From an uncultured Alphaproteobacteria bacterium (GTDB taxonomy: Bacteria; Pseudomonadota; Alphaproteobacteria; Caulobacterales; Hyphomonadaceae), in assembly GCA_963738625.1 (NCBI GenBank), contig CAVTXH010000003.1, positions 196,110 through 260,109 on the forward strand: DNA of 64,000 nucleotides. Direction: 5' to 3'. Under the pieces are notes generated by a model. That model did no database searches. It worked only from the letters and a program-made list of their open reading frames with translations, and was not told the DNA's origin. The translations under genes and the position numbers were made by a program. Below are positions 7,250 through 19,489 of the stretch, piece by piece (position 1 is the first letter of the stretch; every line of letters begins with the position of its first letter).

Positions 7250-7468
7250 CCGTTCGAGAAGGTTACGTTTCCGCCAGAAACTAGCTCATGCCGCTGCTAG
7301 CACAACACCCGCGCGTGCGCCGCTCTTAACGCCTCGCTCCATCCCGCCACAATCGCCGCCGCGCCGCCGCAGTCGCCGCCACAACGTCACCGCGCCAGCA
7401 AACGCCGGACGACGTCACACTGTTGTGTGCGGTTCATCGGGCGCCTCAGGGGGGCGGCCACCCCGGGG

Positions 7469-9769
7469 ATGGAACAGATGAGCACCCTCACAATGTATGT
7501 CGACCGCGCGCGCCCCGCACTCGCAGGCGCGCTCCTTGCCGCAACGGCCCTCAGCCCTGCGGCTTTCGCCCAGCAGCCGCAGCGCGACGGCACGATCAGC
7601 AAGGCCGAAGTATCCTCCGGCTCCCTGCTGCTGCAATCCGCAACGCCTGGCCGCTATGTCGAGGCGCCGCTTGTGGCGGCCGACGTGAAGATGGACATCG
7701 CCGGTCCGGTCATCCGCACCCGGCTCACCCAGCGCTTCACCAACCCCACGGACAAGTGGGTCGAAGGCGTCTACGCCTTTCCGCTGCCGGAAGATGCGGC
7801 CGTCGATACGCTGCGTGTCATCATCGGCGACCGCTTCATCGAAGGCGACATCAAGGAGCGCAAGGAAGCCCGCATCATCTACGAGCGCGCCGCCGCCGCC
7901 GGCCAGAAAGCGGGCCTGGTGGAGGAAGAGCGCCCGAACCTGTTCACCACGTCTCTGGCCAATATCGGTCCCGGCGAGACGGTCGCCATCCAGATCGAAT
8001 TCCAGGACAAGGCCCGCCTCGACAACGGCGTCTGGTCGACGCGTTTTCCGCTGGTCATCGGCCCGCGCTATATCCCCGGTCCTGTGACACCAGCGCTCGT
8101 TGCGGACGTTTCCGGCCGCATTGGCGTCGGCCTCAGCAATCCACGCGTGCCTGACGCCGCGCGCATCACGCCGCCCGTCCTCCATCCCGCGCACGAGCCT
8201 TCCGGGCCGGAAGGCCTGCGCCTGCCGGTGCATTTCGACATCTCGCTCGAAGCCGGCGTGCCGCTGTCCTCGATCACCTCGCAGACCCACTCTCTCGACG
8301 TCGCCCGGCCCGACGATGCCAGCGCGCACATAACGCTGCGCGACGGCGAAGTGCCGGCCGACCGCGACTTTGTCCTCTCCTGGAAACCGGAGCCCATCGC
8401 CGCGCCGAAAGCCAGCCTGTTCCGTGAAGAACGCAATGGCGAGGAATTCCTGCTCGCCGTCATCAACCCGCCCGCGCTGAAGGTTGAAGGCCAGCGCCGA
8501 GACCGCGAGACGATCTTCGTTATCGACAACTCCGGGTCGATGTCCGGCGAAAGCATGGACCAGGCGAAGGAAGGTCTGCTGCTCGCGCTCAACCGGCTTG
8601 CGCCTACGGACGAGTTCAACATCATCCGCTTCGACGACACGATGGACATGCTGTTCACCGCCGCCGTCCCCGCGAGCGACCAGAACCTCGCCCGCGCCAA
8701 GCGCTTCGTCTCGAGCCTTGAGGCCAATGGCGGCACCGAAATGCTGCCCGCCCTGAAAGCCGCGCTTATCGACAACGACCGGAAGAACACCGAGGAAGTC
8801 CGCCAGGTCGTCTTCATCACCGACGGCGCCATCGGCAATGAGGATGAGCTCTTCTCGGCCATCCACGACAATCTCGGCCGGTCGCGTCTCTTTACCGTCG
8901 GTATCGGCTCGGCCCCCAACGGCTACTTCATGACGCGCGCCGCCCGCCAGGGCCGCGGCACGTTCACTTACATGGACGACGTCACCAAAGTCGCCGAGCA
9001 GTCGGAGAAACTCTTCGCCGCGCTCGAAAACCCGGTGATGACCGACCTGGAGGCCAAGCTGCCGCTCGCCACGTCCGACGCCTATCCCTCGCCGCTGCCG
9101 GATCTCTATGCCGGGGAGCCGGTGACGATGGTGATCCGCGCCGACCAGCTGAAGGGCGATCTCCAGCTCTCCGGCAAGCTCAACGGCAAGGTCTGGAACA
9201 CCACGCTGTCGCTCGCAGACGCCGCGCCCTCCAAAGGCATCGCGCAATTGTGGGCTCGCGCGAAGATCTCCGGCATCGAGGAAAGCCGCTATGCCGGCGT
9301 CACGATGGAAGCCGTCGACGCCAGCGTGCTCAAGACCGCGCTCGACTTCCATCTCGTCTCGCGCCTCACCAGCCTTGTCGCCGTCGACAAGACGCCGGCG
9401 CGGCCGGCGGGCGAGAAGCTCGACACGCGCCAGATCGCGACCATGCTGCCGAAAGGCTGGGACTTCGCCCATGTCTTCGGCCCCGAAGCAGAAGCGCGCG
9501 CCCTGCGCTTCGACCGGCTGCCCGACGGCGTGATGCAGAAGATCAATGCACGCGCCGCGAAGGAGCAGGTTCGCGACGAGGACGACAACTTGCCGCTGCC
9601 GGGCACGGCCAGCGCCTGGGAAATGATGCTCGCCTTCGGACTCACGCTCTTCCTGTTCGGCGCCGCGCTACTGCGCTCCGGACGATCCGCCATCGGCCTC
9701 CGGGGACAGGCTTCTACAGCCAGCGACGGGCAGGTGCGCGCAACGTCCGGTCGCAGACGCGCGAGGTAA
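7469..9769 (+). CDS. VIT + von Willebrand factor A domain protein with a C-terminal sorting signal (proteobacterial sortase target protein)
   Basis: The protein has a signal peptide (ALAGALLAATALSPAAFAQ), a VIT-like N-terminal region and a vWA MIDAS motif (IFVIDNSGSMSG...GGTEM...FITDGAIGNE). The C-terminus reads LPGTAS + hydrophobic helix + Arg-rich tail. The start is uncertain (GTG 7427, ATG 7469/7478/7493). Confidence 0.85.
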   Translation: MEQMSTLTMYVDRARPALAGALLAATALSPAAFAQQPQRDGTISKAEVSSGSLLLQSATPGRYVEAPLVAADVKMDIAGPVIRTRLTQRFTNPTDKWVEGVYAFPLPEDAAVDTLRVIIGDRFIEGDIKERKEARIIYERAAAAGQKAGLVEEERPNLFTTSLANIGPGETVAIQIEFQDKARLDNGVWSTRFPLVIGPRYIPGPVTPALVADVSGRIGVGLSNPRVPDAARITPPVLHPAHEPSGPEGLRLPVHFDISLEAGVPLSSITSQTHSLDVARPDDASAHITLRDGEVPADRDFVLSWKPEPIAAPKASLFREERNGEEFLLAVINPPALKVEGQRRDRETIFVIDNSGSMSGESMDQAKEGLLLALNRLAPTDEFNIIRFDDTMDMLFTAAVPASDQNLARAKRFVSSLEANGGTEMLPALKAALIDNDRKNTEEVRQVVFITDGAIGNEDELFSAIHDNLGRSRLFTVGIGSAPNGYFMTRAARQGRGTFTYMDDVTKVAEQSEKLFAALENPVMTDLEAKLPLATSDAYPSPLPDLYAGEPVTMVIRADQLKGDLQLSGKLNGKVWNTTLSLADAAPSKGIAQLWARAKISGIEESRYAGVTMEAVDASVLKTALDFHLVSRLTSLVAVDKTPARPAGEKLDTRQIATMLPKGWDFAHVFGPEAEARALRFDRLPDGVMQKINARAAKEQVRDEDDNLPLPGTASAWEMMLAFGLTLFLFGAALLRSGRSAIGLRGQASTASDGQVRATSGRRRAR
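9596..9610 (+). other. LPxTG-like sorting motif (LPGTA) of the sortase substrate
   Basis: Codons ctg ccg ggc acg gcc are followed by AWEMMLAFGLTLFLFGAALL and then RSGRS...RRRAR. Confidence 0.6.
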
Positions 9770-9835: not shown

Positions 9836-10450
9836 ATGAGCCAGCTCCAGTCCTCCGCTCATGCCGAAAGCTGGAAACCATCCGGCCGATCCACGCGTTC
9901 TCTTTCAGCCCTCGCCATTCTCGTCGCGGGCGCGCTCATCGCCGCGCAGGCGCTGTTCATTCCGGCCAAGGCGCAAGTGGCCCAGATCCTCATGGCCAAC
10001 GCCTGGGAGCGCCAGCTCTCAACCGGCGATCCGGCGCGGCCCTGGCCGTGGGCGGACTTCACGCCGGCGGCCAAACTCGCCTTTCCCGCCCAGAAGAAAA
10101 CCGTGCTGGCGCTCACCGACGCCGCCGGCGAGAGCCTTGCCTTCGGCCCAACGCTGATGGCGGCCTCAGCTAAGCCCGGCCAGCGCGGTGTAGCCGTCTT
10201 CGCCGCCCATCGCGACACGCACTTTGCGTTTCTCGGCGATGTAAGATCCGGCGACCCGATCACCGTCGAGACGCCGGACGGCGCGAAAACCTTCCGCGTC
10301 TCGCACTCCGAAGTGGTCCGCTGGGACCAATCCGGCATCCAGCCCCACGACAACGGCCGGCCGCGCATCGCCCTGGTCACCTGCTGGCCGCTGGATGCAA
10401 AGATGCATGGGCCTATGCGCTACGTGGTGTGGGCCGAGTTGCAGGATTAG
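9836..10450 (+). CDS. Class GN (marine proteobacterial type) sortase
   Basis: The protein has an N-terminal TM anchor. Catalytic signatures are the His region VFAAHRDTHFAFL, the Cys motif IALVTCWP (TLxTC-like) and the Arg region MRYVVWAE. The gene lies directly downstream of the LPGTA-bearing protein. Confidence 0.85.
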   Translation: MSQLQSSAHAESWKPSGRSTRSLSALAILVAGALIAAQALFIPAKAQVAQILMANAWERQLSTGDPARPWPWADFTPAAKLAFPAQKKTVLALTDAAGESLAFGPTLMAASAKPGQRGVAVFAAHRDTHFAFLGDVRSGDPITVETPDGAKTFRVSHSEVVRWDQSGIQPHDNGRPRIALVTCWPLDAKMHGPMRYVVWAELQD

Positions 10451-13470: not shown

Positions 13471-14712
13471 CTATTCCGCTGCGTTCCGCCGTTCCGACCA
13501 TTCCGGAAGGTCGAATTTGGGATTGGGCCAGCCCGCATCGACATAGGCCGGCGCCGCCTTGCGGCCGATTTCCAGCAGCAGCTTCATATTCTCCGGGTGC
13601 CCGTTGGCGAGCTGGTCGACGCTCTCGATCACCCGCGGATCCAGCTCCCGGTCCAGCAGCTTTTCGATCGAGGACCGCGCCAGCGCCTCGCCGCGCTTCG
13701 GCCTGGGCTTCAGGTCGAGCCGCACGTCGATGCGCTGGAAGTCGATCAGCGGCTCAGGCGTGATCGTTCCGCCGCTCAGGTCGCCGACCTCGCTGTTTAT
13801 CTTCCACGGCCGCTGCGATTCCGAGAGCGCCTGCATCAGCATGATGCCCTGCACCTGCGTGTCGTAGATCATGGCCCGCAGCGCGCCGATGCCGCGAAAG
13901 CCCGGTCCCTGGCTCGAGAACTTCTTGCCCTCGACCTCGGGCCTGCGCATGCCCGTGCCGAACGAGGCCATCATCAGCTTGTCTGCGCCCGGCTTCCACC
14001 CGAACCCGTAAGCAGGCACCATCGCCGTCAGCAGAAGCTGTACGCTCGGATTGTTAAACCCGCCCACAGCGCCGTCGACGAAATAGCCGAACTGCTTTGG
14101 CTTGTCCTTCTTGTCGTAGGCCATCGGGATCTTGATCTCGTCGAAGAAGGTCGGCGCCGCCGCGCTCGCCATCACCACATCGATCAGCCGATAGTCCTTG
14201 TTGGGCACATCGTCCGGCCCGAAATCCGGCGGATCGTAATACGGCGCCTTCGGATTGTTGGTCAGCACCCAGGGCGAGCCCGTGTCGATGCGCTTGGCAT
14301 GCAGCGCCAGTCCCGTCCTGATCTGCGAGGAGCCCAGCGTCTTCTTGTCGAGCACGGGCCACAGCGCTTCCTTCAGCGCCTTGCTGTCGTATTTCGAGCC
14401 CATCAGCATGCCGTCGCTCTTGGCCTTGCCGAACACCTTCGGCCCAAGCTCGCCATACATCTTGATCAGCTCGCCGACAGACTTGCCGACGCCGAGGCCC
14501 GCCGCGATGATCGCCCCAGTCGAGGTGCCCCCGATCAGATCGAAATAGTCGCTCAGCACCAGTTCCGGATCGCCTGACCGCCGGCGCAGCTCCTTCTCGA
14601 GCACTTCCAGCATGCCGAGCGTCAGGATGCCCTTCACCCCGCCGCCATCGAGCGCAAGAATCCGCTTTGGCCCCGTGTCAGGATCGAGGTGGCTCGCGAG
14701 TGTCCGGCTCAT
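13471..14712 (-). CDS. Patatin-like phospholipase
   Basis: Signatures are the oxyanion hole ILALDGGGVKG, the nucleophile elbow GGTSTGA (GxSxG) and the catalytic Asp in YFVDGAVGGFNNP (DGA). I chose the start at Met40 of the listed ORF (ATG 14712), which removes the overlap with the upstream gene. Confidence 0.9.
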   Translation of the reverse strand: MSRTLASHLDPDTGPKRILALDGGGVKGILTLGMLEVLEKELRRRSGDPELVLSDYFDLIGGTSTGAIIAAGLGVGKSVGELIKMYGELGPKVFGKAKSDGMLMGSKYDSKALKEALWPVLDKKTLGSSQIRTGLALHAKRIDTGSPWVLTNNPKAPYYDPPDFGPDDVPNKDYRLIDVVMASAAAPTFFDEIKIPMAYDKKDKPKQFGYFVDGAVGGFNNPSVQLLLTAMVPAYGFGWKPGADKLMMASFGTGMRRPEVEGKKFSSQGPGFRGIGALRAMIYDTQVQGIMLMQALSESQRPWKINSEVGDLSGGTITPEPLIDFQRIDVRLDLKPRPKRGEALARSSIEKLLDRELDPRVIESVDQLANGHPENMKLLLEIGRKAAPAYVDAGWPNPKFDLPEWSERRNAAE

Positions 14713-14780
14713 GATGATCCCCTGCGGCTTTTCCCGCCGGGGCGACTTTGGCCAATCTCGGGCTCGGCGCCAAGCGGCGC

Positions 14781-15188
14781 CTACTCCCCACGCACCAGCT
14801 TCGCCAGCTTCTTCGGGGCAATGGCGCAATAGCTCTGGATCATCCAGGCCTTTAGCGTGTCCATCTCCGCCAGAATGTCATCCTCCGCATCGAAACGCGC
14901 GATGACCCAGTTGTACTGCTTGAACCAGCCTTTGCTTTCGCGGACGAAATAAAGCTGCTGCACCATCTCCGCCGAGATCGGCAGCTTCATGATCATGGTC
15001 AGCTGGTCGGGTCCGTCCTTCTTGTCGCCGAACACGAAGAACATCTTGGTCCGCATGTAGAGCGCCCGCGCCGGGACCCAGGCCGGCCCTGCGGTCGTCT
15101 CCGGGAACGTCAGCCCGAATTTCGTGAGCTCGGCTTCCGCCTGTCTGTGCGGCGTCTGCTTCCTCGCGCCGGTTTTCGCCTTCGCCAT
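14781..15188 (-). CDS. MmcQ/YjbR family protein (predicted DNA-binding)
   Basis: The 135-aa ORF fits the YjbR-like pattern (FPETTAGPAWVPARALYMRTKMFFVFGDKK...MIMKLPISAEMVQQL...WMIQSYCAIAPKK). Confidence 0.7.
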   Translation of the reverse strand: MAKAKTGARKQTPHRQAEAELTKFGLTFPETTAGPAWVPARALYMRTKMFFVFGDKKDGPDQLTMIMKLPISAEMVQQLYFVRESKGWFKQYNWVIARFDAEDDILAEMDTLKAWMIQSYCAIAPKKLAKLVRGE

Positions 15189-15278: not shown

Positions 15279-17336
15279 TCAGATCTTGAGTCCCGCCCCG
15301 CGCTGGGTCGCAAAGGGAGGCGGCTTGGCCCCCGACTTCACCGCCCGGATCGCATCGACGACTGTCGAGATGTCATCGAGGCCGTCTCCGGTCACCGCGA
15401 GCGCCGAGAAGCCGTCCGCGAACACCTGCGCAAGGCCGCGCGTCAGCTCGATCGGCAGGATGTTGCAGTGGTCTTCGTCGAACAGCGTCTTGCGATACTC
15501 GATTTCGCGCTGCACCCAGCCCTTCTGGCCATCCGGACCGGCCGCGCGGTCGGAAACAAACGGCACCATGACGAGGGACTCCGCCAGGGCGAGCTCGATC
15601 TCCTTCTTGAATTTCCGCATCGCGTCGGGGCGGCTCATATAGACGCGCAAGCCCGTCTGCTCCAGCGCCGTTCGCCACGCGCTGGCAATCTGTTCGTCGC
15701 GGTTGGTGTAGCTGATGAAAGCGTCGAATGTGAACTGTGCGGCAAACTGCTTCTTCAGCTGATCGACAAGCCTGGCGAAAACAGTTGGGCCGAACGCCCG
15801 CAATGACCGTTCGGAAATCCGCACCACATTCACGATCGATCCGCCGGCGTCCGGATCGATATGGAAGGGATGACTGGCGCTGATGAACGTTCCCGGAAGG
15901 TTCACGCAGACGAGCGGGAGATCGGCCGCATCCAGCTTCTTGGGGACGATCTCGTTTTGCGAGGCTTCAACCAGCCCGCCGCCGGCCAGGATGTAGACGC
16001 CCGGCGCGGCAAAGCGATCCTCGGACGCCAGCTTCGCGGCCGCCTGCTCCCAGTTGAGTTTGTACTGCTCGGCGTCGGCGGCCATCGTCTCCCAGGGATC
16101 GCTCAGTCCGGCCAGCGGGGCGTTGGGCCCCTTGGCGAGATAGCTGCAGCTCTGGCACAGGAAACGCAGCGACCGCTCGAGCAGGAAGTCGCTGAAGACA
16201 CGCTGCAGGCGCCCGGCCTGCGAGCCGGTGTCCAGCAGGCCGCGCAGGATCTCGTAGTTGATCGACAGGAACGCCGTCGGCCCGATGGCCTGCAGCGTGG
16301 CCGTGCGCCGCCGGTTCAGCGCCAGGGCAAGCTCGCCGACAATCTGCCCTTCGCCGAATCTGATGCTCGGAAGCGCCATCGCCGCAGGCGCATCCGGCGG
16401 AGGCGCCGCCGCCACGCCGATGCCGCCCTTGAGAACGACGAACATCGCATCGCCGGGATCGTCCTGGGCGCAGATCGTCTCGCCGTCCTCGCGTTCGACG
16501 AGCTGGGCCGCCCGGATCAGTTCCTGCAGCGACTGGCGGTTCAGCGACGACAGAAGCGGATGGGCCTCGAAACCGTCTCCGCCGCGCGAGCGCAGGACGA
16601 GTTGCGAAGGGTTGAGCATTTGCAGCGCGCCAATCGCCTGCGCGTCCGTTGAGTCGACCTGCAGCAGCCGTTTGGCGTGGTAGATCGCAGCCCACAGCCT
16701 GCCGCGCCGCATCGCGTTTTCTATCTGGGCCTTCTCCGGATGAATCTGGCTTGTATCCGGAGGGGCGATCATGCCTTCGATCGACATCGGCATGATGATC
16801 GCGGCCCTGTCATGCTTCAGGTAGACCTGTTGCTCGCGATGAAAGCTCAGCTTCCCGAGCAGGGGATCGCCGTTGTCCCGGACACTCTCGCAGAGATCGC
16901 GGAAGGACGATGTCGCCAGCGCAATGCCTGCCCTGCCGAACTTCAGCAGGCTGCCGCAGACATTGATGCCGTCTCCGACAAGTTCGTGGCGGCCGTCAGC
17001 GCCTCTGATCACCGAGGCTGGACCAAGATGGACGGTCAGCCTCAGGCCGACCGGCTGGTTGTCGGGGCTGCGCTTGGTCTCGCCGGCCCACGAATAGAGC
17101 CGCGCAACCAGCCGAAGGCCAAACTCGCACTTGTCCTCGCCGAATAGCGCAAGGTGCCCCCCATCGCCGCCGGAGGCCCAGACCAGGTCGCGCCCGAAGC
17201 GCTCGCCGCATGCGTCCGCAATGCAGCCATTCAGGCTTTTGATCCGCTCGAGCTGCCGGGAATGATCAGGATCATCGCCGTGGGAGACGATGTCGCAGGA
17301 GACGAATACCGCGTTGCGGGCTGCTTCGAGATCCAT
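15279..17336 (-). CDS. Multidomain signalling/effector protein: class III nucleotidyl cyclase-like domain + cNMP-binding (CAP-type) domain + uncharacterised middle region + C-terminal TIR domain
   Basis: The 685-aa ORF has high GC3. The N-terminus shows AVFVSCDIVSHGD, ASGGDGGHLALFG and LRLTVHLGPASVIRGADGRHELVGDGINVCGS. The middle shows FGEGQIVGELALALNRRRTATLQA. The C-terminus shows FDAFISYTNRDEQIASAW...LVMVPFVS...GWVQREIEY. Confidence 0.85.
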   Translation of the reverse strand: MDLEAARNAVFVSCDIVSHGDDPDHSRQLERIKSLNGCIADACGERFGRDLVWASGGDGGHLALFGEDKCEFGLRLVARLYSWAGETKRSPDNQPVGLRLTVHLGPASVIRGADGRHELVGDGINVCGSLLKFGRAGIALATSSFRDLCESVRDNGDPLLGKLSFHREQQVYLKHDRAAIIMPMSIEGMIAPPDTSQIHPEKAQIENAMRRGRLWAAIYHAKRLLQVDSTDAQAIGALQMLNPSQLVLRSRGGDGFEAHPLLSSLNRQSLQELIRAAQLVEREDGETICAQDDPGDAMFVVLKGGIGVAAAPPPDAPAAMALPSIRFGEGQIVGELALALNRRRTATLQAIGPTAFLSINYEILRGLLDTGSQAGRLQRVFSDFLLERSLRFLCQSCSYLAKGPNAPLAGLSDPWETMAADAEQYKLNWEQAAAKLASEDRFAAPGVYILAGGGLVEASQNEIVPKKLDAADLPLVCVNLPGTFISASHPFHIDPDAGGSIVNVVRISERSLRAFGPTVFARLVDQLKKQFAAQFTFDAFISYTNRDEQIASAWRTALEQTGLRVYMSRPDAMRKFKKEIELALAESLVMVPFVSDRAAGPDGQKGWVQREIEYRKTLFDEDHCNILPIELTRGLAQVFADGFSALAVTGDGLDDISTVVDAIRAVKSGAKPPPFATQRGAGLKI
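15342..15728 (-). other. TIR domain (about residues 537-665)
   Basis: The domain opens with FDAFISY. A W-x-x-x-E motif (W607...E611) sits where TIR NADases carry the catalytic Glu. Confidence 0.7.
16233..16553 (-). other. Cyclic nucleotide-binding domain (about residues 262-368)
   Basis: The phosphate-binding cassette is G-E-L-A (334-337) followed by R-T-A (344-346). Flanking beta-roll-like sequence reads DAMFVVLKGGIGV. Confidence 0.7.
16887..17315 (-). other. Cyclase homology domain (about residues 8-150)
   Basis: The metal-binding Asp candidates are D15 (CDIV) and D58 (GGDGG). The Asn is N125 (GINV). The expected Arg four residues later is Ser (S129). Confidence 0.65.
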
Positions 17337-18499: not shown

Positions 18500-19489
18500 C
18501 TAGATTCGCGCCAGCCTGCGCAGCGCCTGCGGCGGTTGCCCGAAGGCGCGCACGAACGCCCGCCGCATCCGCTCCGGATCGCCAAAGCCCGCTTCCCGCG
18601 CAATGACATCGATCGGGTCGGGCGAATGCTCCACCTGCTCGCGCGCCGTCTCCAGCCGCAGCCGCTCCACCGCCTTGGCCGGCGTCACGCCCGTCTCCGC
18701 CGCGAAGGCGCGCGCGAAATTGCGCGGGCTCATGTTCGACTGCTCGGCCAGCTGCTCCACCGTCAGCTTCTGGTCCAGCCGCTCGCGCATCCAGCCGAGC
18801 AGCTTGGTGAACCGCCCTTCCGTGCGCTCGATGTCGAGCAGCGCCGAGAACTGCGACTGGCCGCCCGGCCGGCGGTGATAGACCACCAGCTCCTGCGCCG
18901 AGCGCCGCGCCGCCTCCTCGCCCAGATCGTCCGCGATCAGCGCCAGCGCGAGGTCGATCCCCGCCGTGATCCCCGCCGACGTCCAGATCTTCCCATCGTG
19001 CGTGTAGATGCAGTCCGGCTCCAGCTTCACATTCGGAAAGCGCTTCTGGAAATCCGGCGTGCGCCGCCAGTGCGTGGTCGCGCGCTTGCCGTCCAGCACG
19101 CCCGCCGCCGCCAGCACATACGCGCCCGAGCACACACTGCACAGCCGCCGCGACGCCTTCGCCGACGCGGTCACCAGCGCCAGCAGACGCTGGTCCTGCA
19201 TCGCCTCGCGCGTGCCGACGCCGCCCGACACGATCAGCGTGTCGAACATCGGATCGCGCGGCAGCCCCTCCGCCATCATCTCCACGCCGCACGAGGCGCG
19301 CACCAGTCCCGCTTTTGGCGCGATCACTTTCAGGTCGTAAGGCGGCGGATCGAGCCCGCGCATCGGCATCTCGAACGCCGAGATCGGCCCCGCCGCATCG
19401 AGCAGCTGGAACCCGTCGAAGATCACCACGCCGATCGTCCTCGGCTTCAGCTTCCTTGCCCTGGTCTCGCGCGCAGCGCTGTCCGGCAT
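18500..19489 (-). CDS. GlxA family transcriptional regulator (DJ-1/PfpI-like N-terminal domain + AraC-type HTH)
   Basis: The N-terminal domain reads IGVVIFDGFQLLDAAGP...LCSVCSGAYVLAAAG. The C-terminal AraC HTH reads LTVEQLAEQSNMSPRNFARAF...GFGDPERMRRAF. Confidence 0.9.
   Translation of the reverse strand: MPDSAARETRARKLKPRTIGVVIFDGFQLLDAAGPISAFEMPMRGLDPPPYDLKVIAPKAGLVRASCGVEMMAEGLPRDPMFDTLIVSGGVGTREAMQDQRLLALVTASAKASRRLCSVCSGAYVLAAAGVLDGKRATTHWRRTPDFQKRFPNVKLEPDCIYTHDGKIWTSAGITAGIDLALALIADDLGEEAARRSAQELVVYHRRPGGQSQFSALLDIERTEGRFTKLLGWMRERLDQKLTVEQLAEQSNMSPRNFARAFAAETGVTPAKAVERLRLETAREQVEHSPDPIDVIAREAGFGDPERMRRAFVRAFGQPPQALRRLARI

Follow-up and report, generated by a model that had tools for sequence, protein, structure and literature searches.

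Can the enzyme that makes a cyclic-nucleotide signal, the sensor that reads it and the effector that acts on it all reside in one polypeptide? This question is raised by a minus-strand gene in a 64,000-nucleotide stretch of DNA (the window; positions 196,110 to 260,109 of contig CAVTXH010000003.1, assembly GCA_963738625.1) from an uncultured alphaproteobacterium of the Hyphomonadaceae. An earlier note, made from the sequence alone and giving no strand, had read in its 685-amino-acid (aa) product a nucleotidyl cyclase domain, a domain binding cyclic nucleoside monophosphates (cNMPs) and a TIR domain. Altogether, our results support the three domain calls and the reading of a chain that combines generator, sensor and effector, and the ligand-binding and catalytic residues of all three modules are identical in 74 of 74 homologues (conservation is given throughout as column counts from an alignment of these 74 homologues, with identity down to 26%). 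At a probability of roughly 50%, we favour a model whereby the protein acts on its own, in a Pycsar-like manner, as an abortive-infection module: it would make the cNMP that it senses and, as its output, kill the cell or arrest growth. Residue numbers are counted from the first methionine (M1) unless said otherwise; in this numbering the residues named in the earlier note (D15, D58, N125, R344 and E611) are all correctly placed, as are the motifs WASGGDGGH (53-61), GELALALNRRRTA (334-346) and WVQRE (607-611). The gene and its product have the following features, in which CNB stands for cyclic-nucleotide-binding, AF2 for AlphaFold2 and pLDDT for the predicted local distance difference test score.

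15279..17336, minus strand: complete gene for the 685-aa cyclase-CNB-(CNB-like)-TIR protein, with ATG at 17336-17334 and stop codon at 15281-15279
16779..17321, minus strand: predicted class III cyclase homology domain, residues ~6-186, from family profile, AF2/Foldseek and column counts
17292-17294, minus strand: predicted metal Asp D15
17163-17165, minus strand: predicted metal Asp D58, within WASGGDGGH (17154-17180)
17040-17042, minus strand: predicted phosphate Arg R99
16962-16964, minus strand: predicted transition-state Asn N125
16950-16952, minus strand: Ser129, occupying the canonical transition-state Arg position
16587..16742, minus strand: helical linker, residues ~199-250, with conserved YHAKRLLQ.DS.D motif and helices 199-209, 213-226 and 231-239
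16152..16574, minus strand: cNMP-binding domain CNB-A, residues ~255-395, matching PF00027 and PKA-RI alpha
16299-16337, minus strand: phosphate-binding cassette G334 E335 ... R344 T345, inside CNB-A
15741..16100, minus strand: beta-rich domain, residues ~413-532, seven strands with helices on either side, pLDDT for the most part >90
15336..15731, minus strand: TIR domain, residues ~536-667, with WxxxE motif, matching PF13676
15504-15506, minus strand: predicted catalytic Glu E611, conserved in WxxxE

The open reading frame (ORF) at 15279-17336 is a genuine gene, because its GC content at third codon positions (GC3; 0.82) is level with that of its neighbours and because a search of 5.8 billion proteins returned 87 homologous clusters, nearly all of 660-690 aa and with 97-100% query coverage, at identities ranging from 98% to 27% and E-values down to 0. 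Translation of the plus strand over the same interval is riddled with stops, and near the gene no consensus promoter or terminator exceeded shuffle expectation. One homologue carries the NCBI name 'cyclic nucleotide-binding domain-containing protein' and nothing more, and several are annotated by JGI as 'class 3 adenylate cyclase'.

The N-terminal domain is, as judged from family profile and predicted structure, a diverged cyclase of the class III fold that lies under the PF00211 threshold, a call based on these two lines of evidence. The hmmscan with PF00211 proposed in the earlier note left the cyclase undetected, in the full protein and the isolated N-terminus (E<=10) as well as in 25 family members scanned singly, and on this check alone the answer would have appeared negative. 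The domain was recovered instead by a profile of 25 N-termini, which among PDB sequences matches Ma1120 (4wp3, E 1.9e-7) and the cyclase homology domain (CHD) of Rv1900c (1ybt, E 0.0037) as well as GC-A and rhodopsin guanylyl cyclase (RhGC; E ~0.01), and by structure prediction. RecA chains topped the profile search, but these are concatenated constructs in which a 22-residue motif recurs, and we dismissed the matches as an artefact. When the AF2 model of residues 1-196 (pLDDT 94.4; predicted template modelling score, pTM, 0.91) was compared with the PDB by Foldseek, each of the best 50 matches was a catalytic domain of a class III adenylyl or guanylyl cyclase, with template modelling (TM) scores of 0.61-0.80 and E-values of 1e-10 to 1e-8.

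HMMER alignments to Ma1120 and Rv1900c place D15 and D58 on the two metal-binding Asp positions, R99 on the phosphate-binding Arg of the 'vRiGiH' strand and N125 on the position of the transition-state Asn, which in Rv1900c is a His; A54 falls on the substrate-specifying Lys and S129 on the transition-state Arg. The loop around D58 is part of the family's own signature: W53, S55, G56, G57, D58, G59, G60 and H61 are each found in 74/74 sequences and A54 in 73/74, so that WASGGDGGH, together with GADGR, makes up the invariant motifs peculiar to the family; these family-specific residues gather in the region of the cyclase active site. Besides A54, two positions depart from the canonical pattern. 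At the Asp/Cys specificity position, seven residues before the Asn (N-7, residue 118), Gln is found in 42 and Glu in 30 of the 74 homologues, and at N+4, where the canonical Arg would stand, there is Ser in 49, Arg in 7, Gly in 5, His in 5 and another residue in 8. Neither the ATP rule (Lys/Asp) nor the GTP rule (Glu/Cys) for the purine-specifying pair thus applies and, because the base-specifying positions hold Ala54 and Gln/Glu118, the base of the cNMP is not predictable; judging by these unusual specificity residues, the product could be a nucleotide outside the known prediction rules. We speculate that the near-invariant H19 (73/74), H61 (74/74), H103, D114 and R116 (71/74) might act as stand-ins for the lost Arg.

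From the cyclase, a helical linker leads into the sensor. Its residues Y218, K221, R222, L224, Q225 and D230 (counted here without Met1, so that adding one gives M1 numbering) are invariant or nearly so. The CAP-type cNMP-binding domain described in the earlier note is borne out by a match of residues 283-369 to PF00027 (cNMP_binding; E 9.6e-11, 42 bits, gathering cut-off 27.5), by a match to PKA-RI alpha in the PDB (E 2.6e-11) and by an intact cassette in which G334, E335, R344 and T345 are each 74/74. In the full-length model (pLDDT 87.6), the CNB is followed by a beta-rich domain and then by a long helix that runs into the TIR domain. The region of residues ~400-530, which the earlier note had left unassigned, is a confidently folded beta-rich domain, which we consider probably a degenerate second CNB-like barrel (CNB'). 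In agreement with this, Foldseek aligns the full-length model over ~285 columns to tandem-CNB structures of the protein kinase A regulatory subunit (PKA-R) and of protein kinase G (PKG), and a PGLYILAGGxL strand motif of the domain resembles the CNB beta2-beta3 motif. The phosphate-binding cassette is missing from residues ~413-532, a comparison of residues 399-534 with CNB-A by hhalign yields a probability of 0.6%, which is not significant, and the profile of the domain has zero matches among PDB sequences.

The C-terminal module is a TIR domain with a Glu at the NADase position, as had been claimed. Residues 540-632 match PF13676 (TIR_2; E 7.7e-9, 36.5 bits, gathering cut-off 28), homologues reach E-values of 8e-21 for TIR_2 and 2.8e-8 for TIR PF01582, and conservation is 74/74 for E611 and F540 and 71/74 for W607. 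A Glu at the position of E611 is the catalytic residue in TIR NADases. Because D15, D58, R99 and N125 in the cyclase, G334, E335, R344 and T345 in the CNB cassette and E611 in the TIR domain are each 74/74, the alignment argues that the residues predicted to carry out metal-dependent nucleotidyl transfer, cyclic-phosphate binding and TIR catalysis are under strict purifying selection in all three modules.

Some relatives carry other effectors. Of 226 collected proteins scanned with local hidden Markov models (HMMs) for each of the four modules, 126 had the order cyclase-CNB-CNB'-TIR, and eight had the first three modules followed by a different C-terminus. In four of these an alpha/beta-hydrolase with a GHSxGG-type elbow replaces the TIR domain (P0082, P0086, P0163 and P0167, with PF12697 recorded for P0086), in two a Ser/Thr kinase (Pkinase; P0075 and P0195), in one a CHAT caspase-like protease (P0096, the C-terminus of which matches PDB 8tl0 at E 1.4e-15) and in one a C-terminal domain of no assigned family (P0113). 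Interchangeable toxic outputs on a constant sensor chassis are a pattern of conflict systems, according to Kaur et al. 2020 (PMC7159879). A further five proteins (P0123, P0139, P0142, P0145 and P0151) end right after CNB', with no C-terminal effector, and carry an N-terminal extension of 115-160 aa; this extension has a conserved pattern that by eye looks like an actinobacterial XRE-type helix-turn-helix (HTH), and it has zero sequence matches in the PDB. Effector-less cyclase-CNB-CNB' forms of ~540 aa occur in Lentzea, where the effector-less form is preceded, within ~14 bp, by a gene for 561 aa that end in an RNase_H_2 domain (PF13482; L031:6278-7963, plus strand, with counterparts in L034, L037 and L042). 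We do not take this gene as a partner, the pairing being confined to Lentzea and indistinguishable from plain synteny.

The family is well delimited and thinly spread. Searched with the family profile, 1.84 billion representatives gave 104 clusters at E<1e-30, mostly of 650-690 aa, followed by a gap and then by ordinary PF00211-positive cyclases at E ~1e-15; this next tier includes P0210 and P0214, which join a cyclase to a CNB but have no effector, and PADLOC PycC models match the cyclase domain of P0214. Full-length relatives are found in ~36 of 185,579 species-representative genomes (~0.02%), and within large genera the carriers are a few species only. Hosts are alphaproteobacteria (Hyphomonadaceae, Hyphomicrobium, Roseiarcus, Acetobacteraceae), actinobacteria (Micromonosporaceae, Pseudonocardiaceae, Sphaerisporangium, Solirubrobacterales), and one Verrucomicrobia and one Burkholderiales metagenome-assembled genome (MAG). 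The neighbourhood differs in each lineage: gene order matches the window only in a 98%-identical strain (L086), and no flanks are shared with the loci L007-L009, the genes of which are 81-83% identical in DNA to that of the window. This rare and scattered occurrence, in a different neighbourhood per lineage, is not that of a syntenic housekeeping gene present in all relatives, the outcome that the earlier note had given as counting against an immune role.

A survey of 125 immediate neighbours at ~32 loci revealed no conserved partner gene. Matches to 28 PADLOC models occur among these neighbours, none of the models being matched by more than one neighbour, and no defence family recurs. The gene is a free-standing accessory gene, spread by horizontal transfer and not visibly located in defence islands. 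The sole recurrent neighbour family is a ~190-aa predicted membrane protein, 8xMP (PF24838, best E 6.6e-48), at four actinobacterial loci; it may be a lineage-specific partner, and a search for literature on '8xMP' found nothing relevant. Its positions are as follows.

L016:10004-10567: 8xMP neighbour, 3' side
L022:10120-10677: 8xMP neighbour, 3' side
L041:10007-10603: 8xMP neighbour, 3' side
L029:7334-7900: 8xMP neighbour, upstream

In Saccharothrix (L032:9961-12096, plus strand), a gene for a STAND NTPase with NB-ARC and TPR parts shares ~20 bp with the 3' end of the cyclase-CNB-TIR gene, an overlap suggesting that this lineage transcribes the two together.

How would such a protein work? 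In class III cyclases, the active sites form where two cyclase domains meet in a dimer. In our model, a trigger, most plausibly phage infection, would cause two cyclase domains to pair and to produce a 3',5'-cNMP, which would then occupy the cassette in the CNB of the molecule that made it or of its neighbours. As it does in PycTIR and PucTIR, ligand binding would drive oligomerisation and thereby bring the TIR domains together as an active NADase, and the resulting depletion of NAD+ would leave the infected cell unable to support phage growth. Oligomerisation would also concentrate cyclase domains and so could set up a positive feedback; with a diffusible messenger, and with further cyclase domains gathered by oligomerisation, a self-amplifying, all-or-none switch is possible. 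The fused design might in addition hold the signal local, away from phage sponges, phosphodiesterases and nucleases. We count in favour of this model the swapping of effectors, the rare and patchy distribution, the non-conserved flanks and the invariance of the residues, together with the finding that the nearest cyclase relatives include cyclase+CNB proteins that match PADLOC PycC models and with the precedent of CNB-TIR proteins that cNMP activates through filaments (PMC11224242 and preprint 10.64898/2026.08.12.744502). The fullest version of it, a single-protein immune system with a remodelled class III site, sensing in cis or in trans, feedback, a local signal and modular outputs (TIR, CHAT protease, lipase-like hydrolase or kinase), we put forward only tentatively and would rather doubt than assert as a whole.

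Several observations weigh against the immune model. Neither Pfam nor NCBIfam nor PADLOC gives a cyclase match (PF00211 and PADLOC PycC included) for the full protein or the isolated N-terminus. The transition-state Asn-x-x-x-Arg pair is incomplete, with the Asn kept and position +4 being Ser here and other than Arg in 67/74, and with this Arg replaced, turnover by the cyclase may be low or its chemistry altered. At the level of the genome, the association with defence islands that the earlier note had raised was absent among the neighbours surveyed, most of which are housekeeping genes; plasmid and phage collections contained zero homologues, and no tRNA, integrase signature or flanking repeats were seen around the gene. 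Finally, the effector-less forms and those with HTH-like extensions could be a sign that the family serves regulation and not immunity. The features of the active site lend themselves to an explanation in which the cyclase domain is non-catalytic, serving as a sensor of nucleoside triphosphates (NTPs) or as a dimerisation module, and in which the CNB-TIR part answers to cNMP from a housekeeping cyclase or an unlinked cyclase of the Pycsar type. Both purine-specifying positions are non-canonical, the cyclase models of Pfam and PADLOC fail to recognise the domain, and other conflict systems are documented to contain cNMP-cyclase domains that are inactive (PMC7159879); because the transition-state Arg is Ser here and in 49/74 homologues, the cyclase may be weakened or repurposed. 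We nevertheless consider a non-catalytic domain unlikely, since the metal Asp pair, the phosphate Arg and the Asn are kept in every homologue and WASGGDGGH is near-fully invariant, whereas inactive domains normally lose these residues first; moreover, R116, H61 and H19 could replace the Arg, and Rv1900c, a structurally solved cyclase, likewise deviates at the Asn position.

The genomic features, in turn, would fit a physiological regulator outside immunity, a cNMP-gated NADase (hydrolase or kinase in the paralogous forms) through which an internal signal of stress or development would be coupled to the NAD+ level, to dormancy or to programmed death of the cell. At most loci the gene does sit among ordinary metabolic genes with no defence-island signal, the effector-less variants and the extensions that by eye resemble HTH domains look regulatory, the hosts are chiefly morphologically complex (prosthecate Hyphomonadaceae, Hyphomicrobium, filamentous actinomycetes), and housekeeping fusions of a CNB to an enzyme are known, such as the CNB-EAL protein Bd1971 and the acetyltransferase Pat, which are among the weak matches. 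Against this, a gene present in ~0.02% of species and in few species per large genus is too rare and patchy for a core regulator, synteny is absent even between close homologues, and TIR domains, CHAT proteases, lipase-like hydrolases and kinases are typical effectors of conflict systems (PMC7159879), making a non-immune role improbable in our judgement. It would be more surprising still if the TIR domain were the maker of a Thoeris-like signal derived from ADP-ribose (ADPR), or an interaction scaffold, instead of a depleter of NAD+, with the cNMP regulating a second signalling step. Weak PADLOC matches to ThsB-type TIR models (E 0.011-0.057) and the failure of the TIR part of PycTIR to align point in this direction; we regard it as very improbable, given that the neighbours surveyed include no conserved partner gene to receive such a signal, that a CNB followed by a C-terminal TIR is the order of the PycTIR and PucTIR NADase effectors, and that relatives put directly destructive enzymes in place of the TIR. 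We retain the self-contained abortive-infection module as the preferred model.

Other genes noted in the window are the following.

13471-14829, minus strand: patatin-like phospholipase, probable true start ATG at 14711, matching the PADLOC CBASS model 'Effector Phospholipase' PDLC00758 (E 2.8e-46)
14781-15188, minus strand: 135-aa ORF between the TIR gene and the patatin gene, GC3 0.87, conserved in L086 (2794-3201)
17492-18430, minus strand: DUF1194 protein (E 4.8e-73), directly upstream
18500-19489, minus strand: AraC-type regulator with a DJ-1/PfpI domain, upstream
7427-9769, plus strand: VIT and von Willebrand A protein
9836-10450, plus strand: sortase, after the VIT/von Willebrand A gene

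The patatin gene lies two genes downstream of the cyclase-CNB-TIR gene on the same strand, is called at 413 aa in L086 and is the sole PADLOC match among 10 window proteins; no CD-NTase was found near it. The 135-aa ORF has zero Pfam or PADLOC matches. We rejected both as parts of the system, as they are common only to the 98%-identical strain and absent at all other loci. Neither the DUF1194 gene nor the AraC-type gene is kept beside homologues of the cyclase-TIR gene. The VIT/von Willebrand A gene and the sortase gene look like the known type of proteobacterial dedicated sortase/target pair, and an antisense ORF at 7415-9472, by coincidence also of 685 aa, is spurious.

If our model is correct, the gene encodes the most compact known form of cyclic-nucleotide immune signalling, contained in one movable gene. 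This poses a puzzle, namely why a diffusible messenger should be used at all by a generator that is covalently attached to its receptor. The messenger is likely to serve amplification from one molecule to the next, a switch-like response, or protection of the signal from phage nucleases and sponges. The family also represents a divergent cyclase clade that is missed by current Pfam, PADLOC and NCBI annotation, and defence-system finders will therefore overlook it.

Several known systems resemble the protein in part. With canonical class III cyclases (Ma1120, Rv1900c, Rv1625c, Cya2, soluble guanylyl cyclase (GC) and RhGC) the cyclase domain shares the fold (TM 0.61-0.80) and, at equivalent positions, both metal Asp residues, the phosphate Arg and the Asn; it differs from them in having Ala for Lys/Glu, Gln/Glu for Asp/Cys and Ser for the transition-state Arg. 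The TIR-SAVED proteins of CBASS and type III CRISPR systems similarly fuse a nucleotide sensor to a TIR NADase, which is activated as the ligand induces oligomerisation, but SAVED binds cyclic oligonucleotides and is not a CNB that binds cNMP, and the generator (a CD-NTase or Cas10) is a separate protein. Another is Pycsar, which Tal et al. in 2021 are said to have described as a PycC cyclase paired with a PycTIR effector. The likeness extends to a cyclase of the class III fold, a 3',5'-cNMP (predicted for our protein), a CNB and a C-terminal TIR, and PADLOC models for PycTIR and related effectors match our protein (E 8.7e-7 to 1.9e-5) over the CNB part only. In its logic the protein is like Pycsar or Pucsar, in line with the earlier note. 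It is not Pycsar by membership because its cyclase fits no PADLOC PycC cyclase-domain model, because one polypeptide stands in place of two genes, because the PycTIR models leave its TIR unaligned and because no defence-island context was seen among the neighbours surveyed; in addition, its base-specifying residues differ and an additional beta-rich domain separates CNB and TIR. In PycTIR, according to PMC11224242, binding of the cNMP leads to dimerisation of the CNB and formation of filaments, which turns on the NADase. The related Pucsar system (PucC and PucTIR), in which a preprint (10.64898/2026.08.12.744502) reports that cGMP activates a CNBD-TIR protein by filament assembly, shows that cyclase/CNB-TIR systems extend beyond pyrimidines; unlike our protein, it consists of two genes with a standalone cyclase. 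The survey in that text (10.64898/2026.08.12.744502) names fusions of immune cyclases to STAND NTPases, a bihelical domain and AGS-C, with no cyclase-CNB-TIR among those it names. The literature search found no description of a cyclase-CNB-TIR fusion, its coverage stopping short of Figure 1A of the Pucsar preprint, which draws architectures with cNMPBD and TIR; a generator, sensor and effector in one chain is thus, as far as could be found, without precedent. The fusion of generator and sensor does have a precedent, because the PADLOC model PDLC00734 ('PycC') joins a CNB and a cyclase in one chain. There the order is reversed, with the CNB before the cyclase, and no effector is attached; the CNB of our protein matches positions 25-121 of PDLC00734 while its cyclase goes unmatched, and it is the cyclase domains of relatives that match positions ~266-374.

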